64,000 bases of DNA from an uncultured Chloroflexia bacterium (GCA_963811305.1 CAWEQU010000008.1:324539-388538), one strand, 5' to 3'; shown: positions 28,711 to 63,247, numbered from the stretch's first letter. The notes: generated by a model from the sequence alone, not told the origin. Numbers and translations are program-made.

Positions 28711-29469
28711 ATGGACACGAGTATCTCGCAATCGGATTGGCGCAAAGTGATAGCCGAAATCGTCGGCACCTTTTTCTTCTTCTTTATCGGTATCGGAGGG
28801 GCAATCATAGCCGGGGGGACCGGGGGGGCTGGTGGGGTCCTCTATGTAGCCCTGGCGCATGGCATCGCCCTCGCCCTCGCCATCTCAGCCCTGGGGCACG
28901 TATCGGGCGGCCACTTCAACCCCGCCGTCACGATATCTATGCTGGTGACGCGCAGGATCAGCCCTATGCTGGCAATCCTCTATATCATAGGGCAGATCGT
29001 GGGTGGAGTGCTGGCTTGCCTGGCGCTTATCTCAATCTTCCCCAGCGAGGCATGGCAGGCGGTGAATTTGGGCACGCCGAGCGTCGTAACGGGCGTGAAT
29101 ATGGCGCAGGCCATTCTCCTTGAAGCGATACTCACCTTCTTCCTGGTGGTGGCCGTATTCGGCACTGCCGTTGATACACGCGGCAAGGGGATCGCGGGCT
29201 TCGGCATCGGCCTTACGGTCTTCGCGGACATCCTGGTGGGCGGACCCATCAGTGGCGGGGTGATGAACCCTGCGCGCGCCATCACCCCCGCGATTGTTTC
29301 CGGCAACTGGAACGGCGACCAGATAATCTACTGGGTTGGGCCGATAATCGGCGGCATCATAGCGGGATTGCTGTATACCGCCCTCTTCCTCCGCAAAGAG
29401 GACCTGCCATCCGCCGCCGGACAGGAGCCTCCGACGAGTGAGCCTGGGTTGCTGAATGACGGACGATAG
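28711..29469 (+). CDS. aqpZ: MIP-family aquaporin
   Basis: Two NPA boxes (HFNPAVT, MNPARA) and six hydrophobic segments. The stop TAG is supplied by the first GACGATAG unit of the downstream array. Confidence 0.85.
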   Translation: MDTSISQSDWRKVIAEIVGTFFFFFIGIGGAIIAGGTGGAGGVLYVALAHGIALALAISALGHVSGGHFNPAVTISMLVTRRISPMLAILYIIGQIVGGVLACLALISIFPSEAWQAVNLGTPSVVTGVNMAQAILLEAILTFFLVVAVFGTAVDTRGKGIAGFGIGLTVFADILVGGPISGGVMNPARAITPAIVSGNWNGDQIIYWVGPIIGGIIAGLLYTALFLRKEDLPSAAGQEPPTSEPGLLNDGR

Positions 29470-29590
29470 ACGATAGACGATAGACGATAGACGATAGAGT
29501 ATTACTTCCATAAAATAATCTCTGCGCCCTCTGCGCCTCTGCGGTGAACTTATTTTCTATCGTCCGTCGTCTGTCGTTCGTCGTCTATAG
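29458..29590. repeat. palindromic array element (GACGATA)5 .. (CTCTGCG)3 .. (TATCGTC-like)n
   Basis: Read directly. It overlaps the aquaporin stop codon. Confidence 0.85.
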
Positions 29591-40227: not shown

Positions 40228-40343
40228 GGACGATAGACGATGGACGATAGACGATAGACGATAGACGATAGACGATGGACGATGGACGAAAAAACGTGAT
40301 GCGTGATGCGTGACGTTGAACTTTGAACTTTGAACTTTGAACT
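40228..40343. repeat. serial arrays (GACGATA/GACGATG x10, GTGATGC x2-3, TTGAACT x4) in the hutU 5' region
   Basis: Read directly. It begins 19 nt upstream of the hutU ATG. Confidence 0.85.
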
Positions 40344-44468: not shown

Positions 44469-47460
44469 ATGAACGTACCTGGCCTCCCAACCGGCACCGT
44501 TACTTTCCTCTTTACGGATATAGAGGGGAGTACTCAGCTTTGGGAGCGCTACCCGGAGCAGGCAGGTGCAGCGCTCGTCCGCCACGACCAGATAATCGAA
44601 GAGATAGTAGAGCGGCACGGGGGTAGCATTGTACGCCCTCGTGGGGAAGGAGACAGCCGCTTTGCCGTCTTCTCGCGGGCTACGGATGCCGTCGCTGCGG
44701 CTGCCGCGATGCAGCAGGCCCTCCATGCCGAGCCGTGGCCTACGCTAAGTTCAAAGTTCAACGTTCCAGGTTCAAAGGGCGACAACTTTGAACCTGGAAC
44801 GTTGAACTTTGAACTTAAGGTGAGGATGGCCCTTCACACCGGAGAGGCCGACCTGCGAGCGGGAGACTACTATGGCATCGCGGTAAACCGCTGTTCTCGA
44901 TTGCGTTCTGCTGCGCACGGCGGTCAGACTCTTCTCTCTCGAACCACCTATGACCTGGTACATGAGAATATGCCCATAGTGACCACAGGCATAGAGTTAG
45001 AGCCTGCGAGACCTGGGTGAGCACCTGCTTAGAGACTTACAACAGCCTCAGCATATTTTCCAGCTTGTCGTCCCCGGCTTGCCTGCCGACTTCCCACCTC
45101 TCAAGACCATAGATGCTCGCCCTAATAACCTGCCGGGGCAGCGCAGTCCGCTGGTGGGGCGCAGGTCCGAGCTTGCGTCCGTACAACGCTTATTGTTGCG
45201 CGATGACGTGGGCCTGCTGACGCTCACCGGGCCGGGTGGTATCGGAAAAACTCGCCTCGGCCTGCAAGTAGCCGCTGAAGTGGTAGATGAGTTCCAGGAC
45301 GGGGTCTTCTTCGTATCGCTGGCCCATATCACCGACCCCACTCTGGTCGCCCCGGCTATCGCGCAAACACTGGGTATGCAGCAGGTGGCGAGCGGAGAGA
45401 TGGCTGATGGTCTGGCCGACTATTTGAGCGACAAGCGGATGCTCCTCTTGCTGGACAATTTCGAGCAGGTAATCGCAGCAGCGCCACTTGTCGCCACGTT
45501 ATTATCAGCAGCCCACCGACTGAAAGTGCTGGTCACCAGCCGGGAGGTGTTGCACGTACATGACGAGCAGGAGTTCGCAGTACCTCCGCTCGGAGTGCCT
45601 GACCTCGAACACCTCTCCTCCGTCGAGGCGCTTTCCCAGTACGAAGGGGTGACGTTGTTCATCCAGCGAGCGCGGCTGGTCAAGCCCGACTTTGAAGTGA
45701 CCAACGAGAACGCCCCTGCCGTAGCGGAGATATGCTACCGCCTGGACGGTCTGCCCCTGGCTATCGAGCTGGCGGCAGCGCGCATAAAGCTCCTCCCTCC
45801 CCAGGCTATATTATCTCGCCTGGCGAGCAAGTTGCAGTTGCTCACCGCAGGAGGGCGAGACCTTCCAGAGAGGCAGCAGACCTTACGGAGCACTATGCAA
45901 TGGAGCTACGACCTGTTGCAGCCGGGCGAGCAAATGCTGTTTCGACGTATGTCGGTCTTCACGGGCGGCGCTACCCTGGAAGCGATAGAAGGGGTGTGCG
46001 CCGGAGGGCCAGGGGTCAGGGATCAGGGATTAGGGGTCAGGGATGATACAACAGAGTTGACTCCTGACCCCTGGCTCCTGACCTCTTTAGACATCGACAT
46101 CCTGGAGGGGGTAGGCTCGTTGGTGGACAAAAGCCTAGTGCGGCAAGAGGCCAGCACAATCGCAAGTGGCACGGTTGGCAGGGAGAGGGAACCCCGGTTT
46201 GGTATGCTGGAGACGATGCGGGAGTACGCGAGTGAGTTACTGGAGAGCGCCGAGCCTGCGGGTGGAGAGGAGATACACCGCCAGCACGCAGAATATTACA
46301 TGACACTGGCCGAGCAGGGCCGGGAGGGGATCCAGGGACCTTTACAGGAAGTGTGGCTGGACCGTCTCGAAGTGGAGCATGATAACGTGCAGGCAGCCAT
46401 TAAGTGGGCTGTTGAGCAGGGCGACGCTGAAACGGCACTGCGTCTTGGCGGAGAGCTGTGGATGTTCCGGGGGTTTCGAGCTTATCTCAACGAAGGTTAT
46501 CAAAGGCTGAGGGAGGCGTTGGGATTGCCAGGGGCTGAGGCGCGTAGCAGGGCACGGGCCGTGGCTCTCAGGGGCGCAGCGTTGATGAGCCGTTACCAAC
46601 GCGACCTGCCCTCCGCCCGTGCCTATATAGAAGAGAGCATATCAATTCTCCGAGAGCTCGGACCTGAGGAGAGAGGTGAGTTGGGCATCGCGCTGGTCAT
46701 GTATAGCAGCGACCTGGCGTACGCAGGAGAGCATGAGGCTGCGAGAGGAGCAGTGGCTGAAGGCATATCCCTCCTTCGCCATGCAGGAAACAAATGGTCC
46801 CTTTCAGATGGCCTTTTCATGGGAGGCTTTGCCGCCACCGTCGCGGGCGACCTGACCGCTGCTAAGGAGGCATACGAAGAAAGTATAACCCTATGCAGAG
46901 AAGTTGGGAATACGTGGATATTGTCTCATGCGTTGAACAGCCTGGGAGACCTATCACGCATGATGGGAGACTATGCAAGAGCAAGGGAAGTGTACGAGGA
47001 GAGCTTGAGTTTATTCCGGCGGTTAGACGTCAGGATTGATATTCCTGCCTCATTGCACAACCTCGGCCACGTAGCCCTGGCTCAGGGTGAAGTGGAAGAA
47101 GCGAAGGGCCTTTTCATTGAGGCCCTACACCTCCACACCAGCTACAGGAACAGGTCCGGCATCGCAGAAAGTCTGGCCGGGTTGGCAGGTGTAGCCGGGG
47201 CGGAGAAGCACCCCGAGAGGGCTGCGCGGCTCTTCGGGGCGTCAGCGTCAGCAGCCCCCCAAGAACGGCCAGGTCCGCAGGATTGGGCCGCCGAGCAGGC
47301 AGATTACGAGCGCATCCTGGCAAGCACGCGAGCACAACTGGACGAAGCAACATGGGAGACGGCATGGCAAGAGGGACGCGCTATGAAGATGGAGCAGGCC
47401 ATCGAGTATGCGGTAAGGGAAACCGGCCCTGATCACGAGACGATAGACGATAAACGATAG
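44469..47460 (+). CDS. class III adenylate/guanylate cyclase - AAA/STAND ATPase - TPR protein, one frame break
   Basis: Cyclase motifs are GTVTFLFTDIEGSTQLWE, VRMALHTGEA and GIAVNRCSRLRSAAHGGQTLLS. A shift near 45000 leads to LRDLGEHLLRDLQQPQHIFQLV..FPPLKT. P-loop is LTGPGGIGKTRL and Walker B is LLLLDNFEQV. The C-terminal half is TPR-like. Confidence 0.8.
44747..44816 (+). repeat. perfect 31-bp-arm palindrome of GTTCAAA-type units translated inside the cyclase domain
   Basis: aagttcaaagttcaacgttccaggttcaaag-ggcgacaa-ctttgaacctggaacgttgaactttgaactt. It is read as SKFNVPGSKGDNFEPGTLNFEL. Confidence 0.9.
46009..46084 (+). repeat. partly palindromic (GGGTCAG/GGATCAG) array translated inside the STAND gene
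   Basis: ccaggggtcagggatcagggattaggggtcaggga..ctcctgacccctggctcctgacc, read as GPGVRDQGLGVRDDTTELTPDPWLLT. Confidence 0.8.
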
Positions 47461-47537
47461 AGTGATGCGTGATGCGTGAGAGTATTGATTCTTCTGCCTT
47501 CTATCGTCTATCGTCTATCGTCTATCGTCTATCGTCC
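47439..47537. repeat. palindromic array (GACGATA)n .. GTGATGC x2 .. (CTATCGT)5 between convergent genes
   Basis: Read directly. It supplies the TAG stop of both flanking genes (47458-47460 on the plus strand, 47529-47531 on the minus strand). Confidence 0.9.
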
Positions 47538-48139: not shown

Positions 48140-48219
48140 GAAACGTGAAGCGTGATGCGTGAGAGTAGTGCGTAATTCGTACTTCCTAAAGAACCTCTGC
48201 GCACTCTGTGTCTCTGCGG
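48140..48219. repeat. arrays GTGA(A/T)GC x3 and CTCTGCG-like x3
   Basis: Read directly. Confidence 0.75.
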
Positions 48220-52830: not shown

Positions 52831-52935
52831 GAGTAATGAGCCGCAGTCCCTTCAGGTTGGCGATGGTGCTCAGGTTACCATCTCCTGGTCATCTCACTTA
52901 CACAGTAAACGTTGAGTGAGTAAGTAAATCGACCT

Positions 52936-53028
52936 GTAGGGGCGGTTCGTGAACCGCCCTTGTCTCCCGCAGGGGATGTTGCCAAACACGGTGGGTCCCC
53001 AACAGGGCGGTTCACGAACCGCCCCTAC
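52936..53028. repeat. REP doublet: two GTAGGGGCGGTTCGTGAACCGCCC hairpins in inverted orientation
   Basis: 52936-52959 is the exact reverse complement of 53005-53028. Each unit is itself a GGGCGGTT-N4-AACCGCCC hairpin. Confidence 0.85.
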
Positions 53029-53044
53029 ATATTTATCACGCATC

Positions 53045-55673: not shown

Positions 55674-57002
55674 ATGGCCCAAGACAAAGATTACGCACGC
55701 ATTTTAGCCGAAAAGATTGATAAGTGCACAGCAACCGTTGGCGTTATTGGCCTGGGGTATGTTGGGCTGCCCCTGGCGGTAGATTTCGCACACGCGGGCT
55801 TCAAGGTGGTGGCGCTTGACTTAGACAAGAGCAAGGTAGAGGCCATAAACGCAGGGCGCTCCTACATAAAAGACATCGAGAGCGCCGACGTGCAACGCGC
55901 AGTGGCGTCCGGCAAGCTCCACGCTACGACAGACTACGCGGCCCTGCGAGAAGCCGATACCGTCTCGATATGCGTACCCACACCCCTCCGCAAGACCAAA
56001 GACCCTGACATATCATACATCGTCTCGGCTACGGAGTCCCTGGCAGCCAACTTCCGCCCCGGCCAGCTAATCATCCTGGAGAGCACCACCTACCCCGGCA
56101 CGACCGACGAGGTTATTCTACCACGCCTATCCGCCGGGGGCTACGTTGTGGGCGAAGATTTCTTCCTGGCTTTCTCACCGGAGCGCGTAGACCCCGGCAA
56201 CCCACACTTCAAGACGGCCAACATCCCCAAGGTGATAGGAGGCGTCACACCCCGGTGCCGCGACCTGGCGAGCGCGCTTTACTCGCATGTCATCGAGCAG
56301 ATTGTTCCAGTTTCCTCCACCAGCACAGCCGAGATGGTGAAGCTGCTAGAGAACACCTTCCGGGCGGTGAATATAGGGATGGCGAACGAGCTTGCGATTA
56401 TGTGCGCGAAGCTGGGTATAGACGTGTGGGAGGTGATAGACGCCGCGGCAACCAAGCCCTTTGGCTTCATGCCTTTTTACCCCGGGCCAGGGCTGGGAGG
56501 GCACTGCATACCGATTGACCCACACTATCTCTCCTGGAAGCTCAAGACGCTCGACTACAAGGCGCGCTTTATCGAGCTGGCCTCCGAAATCAACACCGAT
56601 ATGCCCCTGTACGTGCTCGATCTGGTCTCCGACGCACTCAATGACCACGCCAAGCCGCTCCGGGGAAGCAGGGTGCTGGTGCTGGGCGTGACCTACAAGC
56701 GCGACGTTGAGGACGTACGTGAATCTCCCGCGATAGACATCATCAACCTGATGCGAGCGAAAGGCGCGCACATAGACTACCACGACCCTTACGCCCTCAC
56801 TCTCCAGGTAGCCGAAGACCAACCCTCTCTCAAGACTATTGACCTTTCAGAAGATGCTCTTAAAAGCTACGATGCTGTGGTAATCACCACTGACCACAGC
56901 AGCTACGACTGGGAATGGATAGCCGCCTACTCCAAGATGCTGGTAGACACCCGCAACGCCACCCGCAACGTTGCAAACCGAGAGAACATCCGGCGACTAT
57001 GA
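55674..57002 (+). CDS. nucleotide-sugar dehydrogenase (UDP-N-acetyl-D-hexosamine dehydrogenase-like)
   Basis: VGVIGLGYVGLPLAVDFAHAGFKVVALD Rossmann motif; ..GGHCIPIDP.. catalytic Cys; 442 aa, intact. Confidence 0.85.
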   Translation: MAQDKDYARILAEKIDKCTATVGVIGLGYVGLPLAVDFAHAGFKVVALDLDKSKVEAINAGRSYIKDIESADVQRAVASGKLHATTDYAALREADTVSICVPTPLRKTKDPDISYIVSATESLAANFRPGQLIILESTTYPGTTDEVILPRLSAGGYVVGEDFFLAFSPERVDPGNPHFKTANIPKVIGGVTPRCRDLASALYSHVIEQIVPVSSTSTAEMVKLLENTFRAVNIGMANELAIMCAKLGIDVWEVIDAAATKPFGFMPFYPGPGLGGHCIPIDPHYLSWKLKTLDYKARFIELASEINTDMPLYVLDLVSDALNDHAKPLRGSRVLVLGVTYKRDVEDVRESPAIDIINLMRAKGAHIDYHDPYALTLQVAEDQPSLKTIDLSEDALKSYDAVVITTDHSSYDWEWIAAYSKMLVDTRNATRNVANRENIRRL

Positions 57003-57148
57003 AGAGCTAGGTAGCTATCACGCAGCCAGAATTGATCCGAGGGGAGGGCGTTGTGGGTAATTACCAGGAGAGCAACACCACCCCGTCAACAAATACTCTA
57101 TGTCAATTTTCCACGCCTACTATGGAATATACTTGTTCAAGAAGTATC

Positions 57149-57837
57149 CAAACCAACCCCCGGAGGGGGTGAAACAGGTGTAGCCCAGGGCGTAAGCCCT
57201 GTGGTTAGCCCCATCACAAGCGATAAGCCCTGTAGGGGCGACACAGATGAAGCGATGTAAAGGGTATACGCATGTCACACACTTATACATATCTTGCAAC
57301 GCACATCGTATTCAGCACAGAAGGCCGTCTGCCCATCATTACGGAGGAAATCAAGTCGAGGTTGTGGGCATACATGAATGGGATTGTGGGTAACATCGGG
57401 GGTAAAGCTCTTGCAATAGGTGGTATGGCTGATTATGCTCATCTCCTCTTATTGCTGCCACCCACCATCGCTGTGTCAGATGCGCTACGTACATTAAAAG
57501 CTAATTCGTCCAAATGGGTGCGTGAGAGTGTTACGCCTCAACATAAGTTCTCCTGGCAGAGTGGTTACGCAGCCTTTAGCGTTAGTCGTTCAGGTATCGA
57601 AGATGTAGTTCGATATATAGAAAATCAGGAAGAGCATCACCGGAAGTTCTCGTTTGAGACAGAGTTGCCCGCGTTATTAAAGAAGCACGGTGTTATTTAC
57701 GATGAACGCTATCTATGGAGTTGATAGACTTGAAAACAGCTGTATCGCCCCTACGGGGCTTATGCTCATTACGCATGCTAACCACAGGGCTTACGCCCTG
57801 GGCTACACCTGTTTCACCCCCTCCGGGGGTTGGTTTG
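57149..57837 (+). mobile_element. RAYT/IS200-like Y1 transposase unit bounded by 61-nt perfect inverted repeats
   Basis: 57149-57209 is the exact reverse complement of 57777-57837. Each arm contains the hairpins CCCCCGGAGGGGG and CAGGGCGTAAGCCCTG. The inner sequences GCCCTGTAGGGGCG and CGCCCCTACGGGGC are also inverted. Confidence 0.75.
57272..57724 (+). CDS. IS200/IS605-family Y1 (HUH) transposase, REP-associated (RAYT-like)
   Basis: 150 aa. ..YLATHIVFSTEGR.., ..ADYAHLLLLLPP.. (HUH position reads Y-A-H), ..WQSGYAAFSVS.., ..RYIENQEEHH... Confidence 0.75.
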   Translation: MSHTYTYLATHIVFSTEGRLPIITEEIKSRLWAYMNGIVGNIGGKALAIGGMADYAHLLLLLPPTIAVSDALRTLKANSSKWVRESVTPQHKFSWQSGYAAFSVSRSGIEDVVRYIENQEEHHRKFSFETELPALLKKHGVIYDERYLWS

Positions 57838-57884
57838 AGACCCCTTGAACTAATGCAACTCCCTACTAGAGGTTAAAGGTCCAA

Positions 57885-59249
57885 ATGCTCCGCACACTTC
57901 TCCGAGACGAAAGCCAGCAGTTCCGCGTGGTCGAGGACCCCTCGGCTATAAGTGAGATCGTCACGCACAAGGACCGCCTCTTGTGGCTCGACCTGGAAAG
58001 CCCCACAGCCCAGGAGTTCGCGCTTATACAGGAGGAGTTCGGGCTGCACCCCCTGGCGATTGAAGACGCTATGGCCCGCCACCAGCGACCAAAGGTAGAC
58101 ACATATGACAACTTCTATCTAGTTATCTTCTACTCGGTGGCCGTTGAGGAGCCGGGCGCGGGCAAGATACCTGGGAGGCGAGGCTTGCACGGCACAGACT
58201 TCCTGAAGCATCCTCCCGCCGGAAACAGGGCGGACGAGATGCTCGGCCCAGGCACGCCCGACGGAGAAGTGAGCGTACCCATCGTAGAGCGAGAGGGCGA
58301 CGAAGACAATAATGATAACGGGGCAGACGAACGCATTATCCTGCGGGAGCTGACCCTCTTCATGGGCCAGAACTTCCTCATTACCGTGCACGACCACCCC
58401 ATCAGCGAACTGGACGAAGCCGCCAAGCGTTGGACCCGTAATATAGAAAGCATCACACAAGAATCGACGAAGACGCATAACCTACCCGGCACCAGGAAAC
58501 TCACACCTGATGAAAAGGCGAATCTCACGGCGCAGTCCACATCGCAGCAAGGCCAGGACGCAGGCCCGCAGCAGATGATGGACACCCAACCTATACCTGT
58601 ACAAGACCAGGACCGTCCTCTGATGCTCATTCCCGCCATTGAGCCAGGCGAAGGGGCGGACGACGGCAAGAGCTATCACGAGCAGAACATAGGTATACTC
58701 CTCTATTCCCTCCTCGACACCATCGTAGACAACTATTTTCCGGTGATAGACAGTATAGTAGACCGCATCGAAGACCTGGAAGAGCGCATATTCGAGAAGT
58801 ACAGCCAGAAGTCCATCGAGTTTATATTCACACTCAAGAAGGACCTGCTGGCCCTCCGCAAGGTGCTGGCCCCGGAGCGCGACGTGCTCAACATCCTCAC
58901 TCGCCGCGACATCCCCATCTTCGATAATCACACAATGGTTTACTTCCAGGACGTGTATGACCACGTCGTCCGCGTCACGGACAGCATAGACACCTACCGC
59001 GACCTGCTGTCAAGCGCCCTCGACAGCTTCCTCTCGATGCAGAGCAACAGGTTGAATATCACGGTGCAGACGCTCACCTCCGTCTCTATCATGCTGATGA
59101 GCATGGCAGCCATCACAGGCTGGTACGGGATGAACTTCGCGGCGATGCCTGAGCTACACTCTGCCTGGGGATATCCAGGTGTTATGATAGTGGTAGCCAT
59201 AATCCTTGTCATCGAGTTCTTCTTTTTCAAACGTAAAGGCTGGCTCTAA
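57885..59249 (+). CDS. corA: CorA-family Mg2+/Co2+ transporter with large low-complexity insertions
   Basis: ..LWLDLESPTAQEFALIQEEFGLHPLAIEDA.., ..GWYGMNF.. and two C-terminal TM segments. At 454 aa it is about 100-130 aa longer than my recollection of typical CorA. Confidence 0.85.
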   Translation: MLRTLLRDESQQFRVVEDPSAISEIVTHKDRLLWLDLESPTAQEFALIQEEFGLHPLAIEDAMARHQRPKVDTYDNFYLVIFYSVAVEEPGAGKIPGRRGLHGTDFLKHPPAGNRADEMLGPGTPDGEVSVPIVEREGDEDNNDNGADERIILRELTLFMGQNFLITVHDHPISELDEAAKRWTRNIESITQESTKTHNLPGTRKLTPDEKANLTAQSTSQQGQDAGPQQMMDTQPIPVQDQDRPLMLIPAIEPGEGADDGKSYHEQNIGILLYSLLDTIVDNYFPVIDSIVDRIEDLEERIFEKYSQKSIEFIFTLKKDLLALRKVLAPERDVLNILTRRDIPIFDNHTMVYFQDVYDHVVRVTDSIDTYRDLLSSALDSFLSMQSNRLNITVQTLTSVSIMLMSMAAITGWYGMNFAAMPELHSAWGYPGVMIVVAIILVIEFFFFKRKGWL

Positions 59250-60905: not shown

Positions 60906-61005
60906 AAAGAGAAAATAACCTTCAGCTCATCACACAAAAGAAAGTATGTGCCACCGCACGATTTCTTTCGCGTGGGGCAAACTGGTAAAATAGAGGGGAT
61001 GTCAT

Positions 61006-63247
61006 ATGTCAGCCATAAAATTCATACGATGTAATCGTGGTGGGGGCGGGGCACGCGGGGTGCGAGGCCGCGCTTGCCGCCGCGCGCATGGGGCACCGTA
61101 CTTTGCTCGTCACCCTCAACCTCGATACGGTGGCGCTGATGCCTTGCAATCCCTCTGTTGGCGGGCCTGCCAAGGGGCACGTGGTGCGCGAGATCGATGC
61201 CCTCGGCGGGGAAATGGCACGCAACACCGACCTCACTTCCATACAGATCAGGATGTTGAACGTCAGCAAGGGTCCCGCCGTGCAGGTCCCACGCGCCCAA
61301 TGCGACAAGAAGCTTTATGCTTTGCAGATGAAGAGCGTGCTGGAGACTACTCCAAATCTCTTCCTCAAGCAGGCAAGCGTCTCCGGCCTCCTACTTGAGC
61401 CACTCGACCCCGCCGCGACAAGCGAGCATCTGGCTAGCACATTGATCCAAACTCCCCGTGCCGCCGATGAGGCCCTGAGAGCGCCCCACCGCCGCCTGAA
61501 GGTGGTGGGGGTTACAACTGCTACAGGGAGCGAGTACAGGGCACGTAGCGTGGTTCTCACAACGGGCACGTTCTTACGGGGGCGGATCATATCAGGCGAG
61601 CTTACCACGCCAGCAGGAAGGGCGGGCGAAGCTCCATCGCAGGAGCTTTCGGGCGTGCTAGGTGAGCTATCATTCCCGCTAATGCGCCTCAAGACCGGTA
61701 CACCCCCACGCATAGACGCTCGCACTATAGATTTCTCCCTCACCGAGCTACAACCCGGCAGCCCAACCCCCCTCTACTTCAGCCACGAGCGCATAGAGGC
61801 GATCACGATGCAGCCGCTGGATACGTACCCGCAGGCGGAAGAGGGCAGAAGGCAGAAGGCAGAAGGCAGAAGGCAGGACATAGAAATCCAAAATCCAAAA
61901 TCCAAAATCCAAAATTGGCGCAGCCAGATGGCTTGTTACCTTGTGCATACCACGCCGGAGACGCACGCTATCATCCGCGATAACCTGGACCGCTCGCCCA
62001 TGTTCAACGGGTCGATAGAGGGGGTGGGGCCGCGATATTGCCCATCGATAGAGGACAAAATCCATCGCTTCGCAGACAAGGAGAGCCACCAGCTATTCCT
62101 TGAGCCGGAGGGGTGGCGGACTAACGAGGTGTACGTGCAGGGGTGTAGCACGTCGCTGCCGGAGGACGTGCAGTGGCGCTTGATACGCTCGATACCTGCC
62201 CTACGCGACGCGGAGATCATGCGTATAGGCTATGCCGTTGAGTATGACGCGATCCCCCCCAGCGAGATCACTGCCTGGCTGGAGAGCAAGCGCGTGGCTG
62301 GACTCTTCCTCGCGGGGCAGATCAACGGCACATCCGGCTACGAGGAAGCCGCGGGCCAGGGGATCATGGGGGGTATCAATGCCGCGCTATATTGCAGGCG
62401 GACGACGGACGACGGACGACGGACGACAGACGGTGTGCCTTCGGCAGACGATGGACGATGGACGATAGACGATAGGTGGCAGGCTCTGAGAGCACCACTC
62501 AGCCAGGGAATGCAGATGGCTGAGGCGATAGAGAAGGTGCTGGATGACATACGAGCCTGTAAGCCCTTGGTCCTTCCGCGCCACCTGGCCTACACGGGGG
62601 TGATGCTCGATGACCTCACCAGTATGGACCACCGCGAGCCTTACCGCCTGATGACTTCGCGGGCCGAATATCGTCTCCTCCTGCGTTCGGACAACGCCGA
62701 CCTGCGCCTCAGTGCTATAGGCCACGCGCTTGGCCTGGTGAGTGAGGAACGTTACGTGGCGACTATGCGCAAGGATGAGATAGTGCGTGATGCCCTGGCC
62801 CGCCTGTCGGAGGGGGTGGTTACGAATGCCGTAGCTACCCGATTATCCAGGGCGGGTTATGATGCGCCCGAATCCGGCAGGCACACGACTATGCTCGAAT
62901 ACGCTCGCCGCCAATCCACGCCGTATCAAACTCTGAGTGTGCTTCTTCCCGATCTCGACGCATCCGACCCACTCATGGAGGAGGCTATGCAGCAGACGGA
63001 GATTGCCGCCAAGTACGCGGGCTACATCGTCAAGCAGGAGAACGAAGTGGCGCGCACCCGCAAGCTGGAAGAGCGCGCCATCCCACAGGAGTTCCCCTTC
63101 GCCCAAATCCCCGGCCTGAAGACCGAAGCACGCGAGAAGCTGGCTCGCTTCCGCCCCTCGACGGTCGGCCAGGCTTCGCGCATCGCTGGTGTTACACCTG
63201 CGGATATCGCTGTGCTGCTGGTGCATTTGAAGAGGCTGGGGACTTGA
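61006..63247 (+). CDS. mnmG: tRNA uridine-5-carboxymethylaminomethyl synthesis enzyme MnmG (GidA) with in-frame repeat-array insertions; N-terminal frame break
   Basis: YDVIVVGAGHAGCEAALAAARMG, GPRYCPSIEDK and SRAEYRL are present. ATG 61006 has an upstream GAGGGGA and TGgTAAAAT but is one frame off YDVIVVG (which opens at 61019), so an indel near 61015-61025 is implied. The alternative start is GTG 61037. Confidence 0.85.
61844..61915 (+). repeat. (GGCAGAA)4-5 + (ATCCAAA)4 arrays translated inside mnmG
   Basis: Read as EGRRQKAEGRRQDIEIQNPKSKIQNW. Confidence 0.9.
62398..62476 (+). repeat. (GGACGAC)4 - TGCCTTCGGCA hairpin - (GACGATG)2(GACGATA)2 arrays translated inside mnmG
   Basis: Read as RRTTDDGRRTTDGVPSADDGRWTIDDRW. 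Confidence 0.9.

Follow-up and report, generated by a model that had tools for sequence, protein, structure and literature searches.

Introduction

Cyanobacteria reportedly carry short tandemly repeated repetitive (STRR) sequences with a heptanucleotide unit, which Mazel et al. described in 1990, and Nostoc and Anabaena are said to contain small dispersed repeats (SDRs), unique hairpin sequences of 21-27 nt that Elhai et al. described in 2008. Here we describe heptanucleotide arrays in a 64,000-nt stretch of DNA (hereafter the window; GCA_963811305.1 CAWEQU010000008.1:324539-388538) from an uncultured soil Chloroflexia bacterium, in which a composite of two arrays, the R2 element, sits in frame within mnmG (gidA), the gene of a tRNA-modifying enzyme. 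We consider it likely that R2 is a composite of the heptanucleotide arrays of this genome, and that it is free of stop codons through a survivorship filter on arrays inside genes.

Heptanucleotide long simple sequence repeats (LSSRs) are known from bacteria (Mrazek et al. 2007, as cited in PMC4679880). Rehm et al. (2015, PMC4692102) described GGGNATC repeats in Xanthomonas and Nostoc that favor about four units and are under-represented on the coding strand. For the TAACTGA repeats of Beggiatoaceae and Microcystis, it has been argued that the stop-bearing orientation cannot persist in open reading frames (ORFs), the other being occasionally translated, mainly in linkers and termini (MacGregor 2015, PMC4679880). 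Rickettsia palindromic elements (RPEs) lie in frame in many unrelated housekeeping genes, where they encode an extra, fold-compatible surface peptide, and are also found between genes (a 2000 study, as excerpted in PMC10969869). Intragenic transposable elements of the miniature inverted-repeat type (MITEs) in Anabaena ORFs are cited in the same excerpt. We found no literature on heptamer repeats in Chloroflexi.

Results and Discussion

Two array insertions in mnmG

The ORF at 61037-63247 was identified as MnmG/GidA by the Pfam families GIDA (E=1e-148), GIDA_C_1st and SAM_GIDA_C, and by MnmG structures from E. coli, Aquifex and Chlorobium (E 1e-149 to 1e-166; E. coli structures, E=1e-165). Both array insertions in this gene, and two intergenic arrays used for comparison, were delimited with Tandem Repeats Finder (TRF) or as exact strings:

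61037-63247, + strand: mnmG (gidA) ORF, 736 aa, host of both array insertions (Pfam and PDB matches)
61840-61915, + strand: first mnmG insertion, R1, (AGAAGGC)5, spacer, (AAATCCA)4.6 (TRF; compared with the sister genome G001)
62400-62427, + strand: R2 array A, (GGACGAC)4, read as (R)TTDDGRRTT (TRF; identical in G001)
62428-62435, + strand: R2 spacer part 1, degenerate unit AGACGGTG (exact string)
62436-62446, + strand: R2 spacer part 2, 11-nt mini-hairpin TGCCTTCGGCA with a 4-bp stem and a 3-nt loop (exact string)
62447-62474, + strand: R2 array B, (GACGATG)2(GACGATA)2, read as DDGRWTIDD(R) (TRF, exact string)
29462-29498, + strand: intergenic comparator (GACGATA)5.3 (TRF)
40229-40289, + strand: intergenic comparator, GACGATA/GACGATG array of 8.7 units, including five GACGATA in succession (TRF)

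R2 thus consists of several 7-nt units per array, arranged head to tail as in the STRR/LSSR class. TRF returned period 7 with 4.9 and 3.9 copies, 95-96% match and scores of 61 and 47. The composition given by a first-pass annotation of the window, (GGACGAC)4, a hairpin and (GACGATG)2(GACGATA)2, was exact, and its limits of 62398-62476 were within 2 nt of ours. The element translates as RRTTDDGRRTTDGVPSADDGRWTIDDRW, corresponding to MnmG residues 454-481. Array B contains TAG at 62466 and 62473, in phases 1 and 2, and the phase-0 junction carries G (TGG). The two comparators have stops in all three plus-strand frames and none in any minus-strand frame, so that the first-pass claim that intergenic runs of at least three GACGATA units close all three frames was right for the plus strand and missed the open minus strand. 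We rejected an RNA structure or RNA family as an explanation of R2, as the stability of the whole element was not unusual (z=0.26) and an Rfam search with it matched no family.

Alignment with the PDB structures resolved MnmG into four blocks separated by three expansions, at residues 122-154, 248-295 (R1) and 452-514 (R2). The R2 expansion relative to E. coli, estimated at first pass as about 55 residues against about 10, is genuine and measured 63 against 11. Only 28 of the 63 residues are array-coded; the remainder is a clade-specific segment shared with array-free relatives, which includes a confident helix at 490-506. In an AlphaFold2 model built on 24 relatives (pTM 0.80), the predicted local distance difference test score was below 50 at residues 268-292 (R1 arrays) and 459-488 (R2 arrays), each stretch lying between confidently modeled secondary-structure elements, in the latter case helices at 435-457 and 490-506. 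On this model both sets of arrays would lie at the protein surface in a fold-compatible position, as RPE peptides do, and the 28 array-coded residues probably form a disordered hydrophilic loop. R2 is placed in the linker between the last FAD-domain helix and the C-terminal helical part of MnmG, and is presumably transcribed and translated along with the rest of the gene.

The conserved N-terminal sequence of MnmG, SYDVIVVG (SYDVIVVGAGHAG), was found upstream of the listed ORF and in frame with it, separated by a 1-nt shift from the ATG at 61000. Compared with G001, the window has a 1-nt deletion within 61000-61040, near 61017-61025 (CATAAAATTCATAC against CATAAAGACTCATAC), and the ORF as listed therefore begins at GTG 61037, within the first beta-strand. 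This shift is either an assembly error or a genuine frameshift.

Genome-wide census of heptanucleotide arrays

The host is a metagenome-assembled genome (G000) of 4.6 Mb in 21 contigs, from a bin that is 71% complete. Arrays were defined as at least three units, and genes (3958, 81% coding) were predicted with our own ORF and hexamer caller; an array was counted as deep in a gene when coding-like sequence lay on both sides of it. Period 7 accounted for 1058 arrays, against 72 for period 6, 28 for period 8 and 12 for period 9. A third-order Markov simulation of contig C6 produced no period-7 arrays, compared with 123 in the real contig, and the excess is not due to chance. The STRR/LSSR class is characterized by just such a period-7 excess across the genome, relative both to other periods and to chance.

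Of these arrays, 588 were intergenic and 159 were deep in 102 predicted genes, giving densities of 0.68 per kb between genes and 0.043 per kb deep in genes; a mostly intergenic distribution with under-representation in coding sequence is again typical of the class. Pfam domains surrounded the array in all seven hosts scanned (five chosen at random from the 102, plus an ATP-binding cassette (ABC) transporter and a MazG host picked for their composites), and the array typically lay in a linker or a domain loop. The vocabulary of G000 comprised 80 words, the top 20 of which covered 87% of arrays. Coding arrays were sharply peaked at 27-34 nt, or about four units; intergenic arrays shared this mode with a tail extending to 154 nt. 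Since the preference for four units extends here to words that are not G-rich, G-quadruplex formation cannot explain it.

The filter on arrays inside genes

Unit composition differed strongly between coding and noncoding arrays, the outcome on which the first-pass reading depended. Among GACGANN units, those ending in TA, TG, CG and AG made up 43%, 27%, 12% and 4% between genes, and 3%, 7%, 43% and 27% on the sense strand of coding sequence (chi-square p=5e-56). The difference was replicated in 812 kb of the sister genome. Runs of at least three GACGATA units were present in 92 of 279 intergenic arrays, in none of 34 sense coding arrays and in none of 8 antisense coding arrays. Depletion of such runs, the comparison proposed at first pass, is circular for the sense strand, because an ORF cannot hold an in-frame stop and zero follows by definition; the antisense comparison is free of this circularity and gave p=0.058.

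Absence of stops is not the main discriminator among coding arrays. GACGATG, which has no stop, is also scarce in genes, as the proportions of TG-ending units show (7% against 27%). Under a pure stop filter, modeled by weighting intergenic arrays by their number of open frames, 41 of the 159 coding arrays would be open in all six frames and 65 would have three open frames; we observed 93 and 17, respectively (p=5e-23). Orientation was also biased: words that are stop-free on both strands were oriented 106:17 in genes, compared with 65:71 between codirectional genes (p=5e-11). TATCGTC, which is GACGATA read on the reverse strand, the commonest intergenic strand-word and itself stop-free, occurred once in genes against 56 intergenic strand-equivalents, whereas AAAATCC occurred 36 times in genes against 11 (contrast p=5e-17).

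The encoded peptides distinguish these words. As 7 and 3 are coprime, each word on a given strand specifies a single cyclic heptapeptide in any frame. Words favored in genes encode polar peptides (GGACGAC, GRRTTDD; AAATCCA, NPKSKIQ; AGAAGGC, RRQKAEG; GACGAAG, DEGRRTK), whereas those avoided in genes encode hydrophobic ones (TATCGTC, YRLSSIV; GGATTTT, the reverse strand of AAAATCC, WILDFGF). Coding arrays encoded heptapeptides with a mean grand average of hydropathy (GRAVY) of -1.55, compared with -0.44 on the stop-free strands of intergenic arrays (p=2e-23). The sister genome again agreed, with -1.57 for coding arrays against -0.76, and none of 58 coding arrays bearing a stop.

Selection thus acts on a tolerable translated peptide, one that is stop-free, preserves the triplet frame in length and is hydrophilic, and not on absence of stops only. 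We propose that the survivorship filter would act on every array that lands or changes inside a gene, passing those with no in-frame stop, with a net length that is a multiple of three, and with a coding-strand word specifying a polar or charged heptapeptide that could be tolerated in a surface loop or linker. The first-pass interpretation, selection for translatability after insertion or arrival of a variant already adapted, is partly supported: selection for translatability is borne out across the genome, but stops by themselves are insufficient to describe it, and adaptation specific to mnmG was not seen.

Relatives and evolution at the mnmG loops

Orthologs of mnmG from the same family-level clade (L003-L009 and L011-L012) had no arrays at R1 or R2. 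The sister genome G001 (mnmG ortholog L001, 93% amino acid identity) carries the same R2 element, its frame intact and its sequence showing 13% point differences, and R2 would have been gained in the common ancestor of the two genomes. In-frame insertion into conserved genes, for which the census gave 159 arrays in 102 genes, and absence from orthologs, seen here for mnmG, recall the RPEs. Unrelated heptamer arrays occupy the same two loops in L002, L010 and L013, for example (AATGGGG)4...(CCCCATT)4 at R1 in L002 and a GGACTGA/GGGCCGA hairpin at R2 in L010, so arrays have been gained here on several independent occasions. In the simplest view, the R1 and R2 loops are among the few permissive sites of MnmG.

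Between G000 and G001, 40% of four-fold sites in mnmG differ (K ~0.58). At R2, the free junctions of GACGATR read G, A, A in G000 and A, G, A in G001, with the in-frame junction TGG in both. This is a neat pattern but a single case, in which we found no evidence of mnmG-specific adaptation; across sense coding arrays, the A variant was not significantly depleted at free junctions (4 A:7 G, against 626:390 between genes, p=0.12). At R1, (GCAGAAG)5 in G000 corresponds to (GACGACG)5 in G001 without an indel, beside an identical (AAATCCA)4.6. The first R1 array of G001 can equally be written (GGACGAC)4-5, and its length is exactly that of G000. A metagenome scan for intermediate relatives of mnmG returned nearest matches of 74% identity, which did not polarize the R1 word swap.

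Length constraint and word exchange

At orthologous coding sites, the difference in length between the two genomes was a multiple of three in 16 of 16 cases and zero in six of these, compared with a multiple of three in 14 of 43 intergenic cases, none of them zero (p=2e-6). Heptamer arrays are clearly unstable between genes, and a non-triplet repeat within an ORF is the architecture of known phase-variable genes. Adding or removing a single 7-nt unit shifts the reading frame and would switch mnmG off, which could make the locus a reversible contingency switch of tRNA modification. The mnmG arrays nevertheless have the same length in both genomes despite their divergence at four-fold sites, no frame-switching polymorphism in unit number was seen between G000 and G001 at any of the 16 coding sites, and four units is short for efficient slippage; we therefore regard a contingency locus as highly improbable.

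Still less credible is that the segment is absent from the mature product, through removal at the RNA or protein level, or that it is an assembly artefact. Repeats can be misassembled, and the bin is incomplete, as noted above. The independent G001 assembly nonetheless has the same element in the same place, still in frame despite its point differences; an intron or intein would be larger than 75 nt, and the lack of an Rfam match or a stable fold also speaks against removal. Only translation of the arrays makes sense of the avoidance of stops, the bias toward hydrophilic peptides and the restriction of length changes to triplets.

Array positions were conserved more often than array words. An array was present in G001 at 16 of 17 coding and 31 of 42 intergenic sites, often with a changed word. 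Among 67 paired arrays, 23 had identical words, 15 differed by one concerted change (Hamming distance 1) and 24 differed at three to five of the seven positions, as random pairs from the vocabulary do. Changed words in G001 fell within the top-20 vocabulary of G000 in 70 of 90 cases (78%), compared with 2-8% for random mutants one to three steps away. Neutral drift with homogenization within arrays was rejected as the source of these swaps: 34% of words were identical against 2.6% expected (a binomial hand calculation from 40% four-fold divergence), and the swaps stayed within the shared vocabulary.

These comparisons also bear on whether the mnmG arrays grew in situ, by slippage from chance heptamer seeds in the loop and independently of other arrays. 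Simple sequence repeats are classically attributed to slippage, and the 15 pairs at Hamming distance 1 are what single concerted unit changes would leave. Growth in place does not, however, account for the same words at hundreds of loci, for the confinement of changed words to the shared vocabulary, for an identical nonrepeat spacer at a second locus (below), or for the gain of unrelated arrays at the same two loops by three lineages, and we consider it very improbable.

A three-array composite was found in a MazG/TP-methylase gene (G000:C7:543006-543116; L170, with G001 ortholog L172). Its first array, (GGACGAC)4, was conserved, and the second and third changed from GACGATG to GACGAAG and from AATCCAA to ACTCCGC with no change in length. 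An inverted-array hairpin at 47438-47536 has arms of GACGATA/TATCGTC in G000 and GACGACG/CGTCGTC in G001, so that pairing was kept and the word changed. A (CAGGGAT)5...(TGACCCC)4 hairpin at 46010-46083 accounts for an extra 72 nt (24 codons) in a predicted 793-aa gene whose G001 site is array-free, a clean case of presence and absence within coding sequence.

We tentatively suggest, as a possibility that we do not favor strongly, that slots of about four units persist both within and between genes and that the word they hold is actively overwritten from the shared vocabulary. Overwriting might proceed, for example, by array-anchored template switching or by an array-writing activity. If true, this would make the arrays inside genes a built-in means of shuffling short hydrophilic peptides, in the loops and linkers of approximately 100 proteins.

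A second copy of R2 in an ABC exporter

The composite occurs once more in the genome, as (GGACGAC)4, TGCCTTCGGCA, (GACGATG)3GACGATA at G000:C8:480078-480144. This copy is antisense and falls in an ABC exporter gene, in the linker that joins the membrane domain to the ATPase domain, where it is read as ...SSIVHRPSSAEGMSSVVRRPSS...; one 7-nt unit and one A/G set it apart from the mnmG copy. The 11-mer TGCCTTCGGCA lies between the same two arrays there (G000:C8:480107-480117) and at no other array pair. Of the composite, the G001 ortholog of the ABC gene has only the (GTCGTCC)4 arm, beside conserved flank, and in the mnmG copy of G001 the spacer has diverged (TACCTTTGGCA); the ABC copy is thus a recent product of the G000 lineage. 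Its placement points to copying primed from the shared 28-nt array. In this antisense copy TAG is irrelevant and yet there are fewer GACGATA units, which implies that the G-rich array B is a property of the element and not an adjustment to the mnmG frame.

Such elements may arrive when ectopic copying or template switching uses a resident 28-nt array as its anchor; the persistence of slots despite the exchange of their words would also follow from this route. Nonrepeat spacers recurred in one clear case among 156 adjacent array pairs, and a block-mobile MITE model was rejected since spacers do not recur. A reverse transcriptase as array writer found no support, with no RVT_1 domain detected, although at 71% completeness of the bin this result is uninformative. 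A link to Y1 transposases was likewise rejected, as the window contains one intact copy but its flanking palindromes are not heptamer arrays.

That copy is in a 908-nt segment at 56996-57904, absent from the orthologous G001 site, in which a Y1_Tnp ORF (57287-57628, E=7e-23; IS200/IS605 TnpA or RAYT-like) is bounded by long, GC-rich ends in inverted orientation (CCCCCGGAGGGGGTGAAACA...). At the site orthologous to window positions 48181-48204, G001 carries these ends without the gene, in a version of about 290 nt. Together they look like a REPIN/RAYT-type pair (a mobile REP doublet and its associated transposase) unrelated to the heptamer arrays. A perfect long palindrome at 52897-53036 (CTGTAGGGGCGGTTCGTGAACCGCCC ... 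GGGCGGTTCACGAACCGCCCCTACA), which G000 has and the orthologous spacer of G001 lacks, belongs to a different family of small palindromic elements.

The second copy is also relevant to a preadapted coding subfamily, in which stop-free hydrophilic composites (words GGACGAC, GACGAAG, AGAAGGC, AAATCCA and ACTCCGC) would spread preferentially within genes and the mnmG insert would have been stop-free on arrival, with no filtering afterwards. Copying of R2 between two genes is what such a subfamily would produce, and it would fit a coding word set that differs from the intergenic one, the greater abundance of AAAATCC in genes than between them, the peak of coding arrays at about four units, and recurrent orders such as GGACGAx followed by AGAAGGC and then AAATCCA or ACTCCGC. 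Against it, the ABC copy is antisense, so the orientation of the element is not preset; the same words occur between genes in both orientations; and the spacers of composites are nearly all unique. Moreover, words at orthologous coding sites keep changing while remaining stop-free, so ongoing selection is required in any case. We regard a preadapted subfamily as improbable, though less so than growth in place or a contingency switch.

Weight of the evidence and implications

Several points weigh against survivorship of general heptanucleotide arrays as the account of R2. The intergenic class would take in stop-bearing arrays that split a gene, and because genes were called with our own caller the contrast between coding and intergenic arrays is inflated to that extent. 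AAAATCC arrays number 37 in genes and 22 between genes, an excess that fits uniform insertion plus filtering only if coding copies persist much longer. The near absence of spacer recurrence indicates that block copying is rare, and word swaps of equal length with conserved flanks, as at mnmG R1 and in the MazG gene, are awkward for homology-driven conversion; the arrival mechanism itself is one that we infer. Finally, if the 1-nt shift at the 5' end is a real frameshift, mnmG may not be fully functional.

With these reservations, the arrays offer a quantified example of simple-repeat DNA colonizing housekeeping genes and of which copies survive there: stop codons matter, and so does the chemistry of the heptapeptide. 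Since 7 and 3 have no common factor, any given word on either strand amounts to a testable peptide cassette. That array positions outlive array sequences bears on the long-open origin and spread of STRR-type repeats. There is also a warning for annotation, in that low-complexity loops of Chloroflexia proteins such as GRRTTDD, NPKSKIQ and RRQKAEG are translated repeat DNA and not functional motifs.

Comparison with known repeat systems

The R2 arrays belong to a known repeat class, the STRR/heptanucleotide LSSR repeats, as judged by their architecture, and they behave like the RPEs of Rickettsia. With bacterial heptanucleotide repeats they share a 7-nt unit, hundreds of dispersed short arrays, a mostly intergenic distribution and mixed words per locus; the liking for about four units and the scarcity on the coding strand are shared with the GGGNATC repeats. 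They differ in their host, a member of the Chloroflexia, in a much larger vocabulary of 80 words, in that about 15% of arrays are deep inside conserved genes, and in a filter that includes peptide hydrophilicity. As far as we could find, the papers on heptanucleotide repeats (PMC4679880, PMC4692102) do not describe the exchange of words at slots that two sister genomes have in common.

Like RPEs, the arrays are short repeated DNA in frame in many genes and also between genes. RPEs, however, are palindromic MITE-like units of ~100-150 bp with conserved sequence and peptide (as excerpted in PMC10969869), whereas here 28-nt heptamer arrays are stacked as modules, separated by spacers that are unique. 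Coding copies are mostly direct and not palindromic, with no terminal repeats or target duplications seen; R2 itself consists of direct arrays without a stable fold, and its spacer recurs at one other locus, unlike a palindrome copied as a unit. The SDRs and MITEs of Nostoc and Anabaena are comparable as very small repeats inside genes of a heptamer-rich filamentous bacterium, but SDRs are unique hairpins and the elements here are tandem 7-mers.

The argument from stop-bearing orientation was already known (PMC4679880, PMC4692102), as was in-frame colonization of housekeeping genes by RPEs (PMC10969869, as excerpted). To these the arrays described here add a quantified filter on hydropathy and strand, frame-preserving turnover of words at persistent slots, and a second, antisense copy of the same composite.

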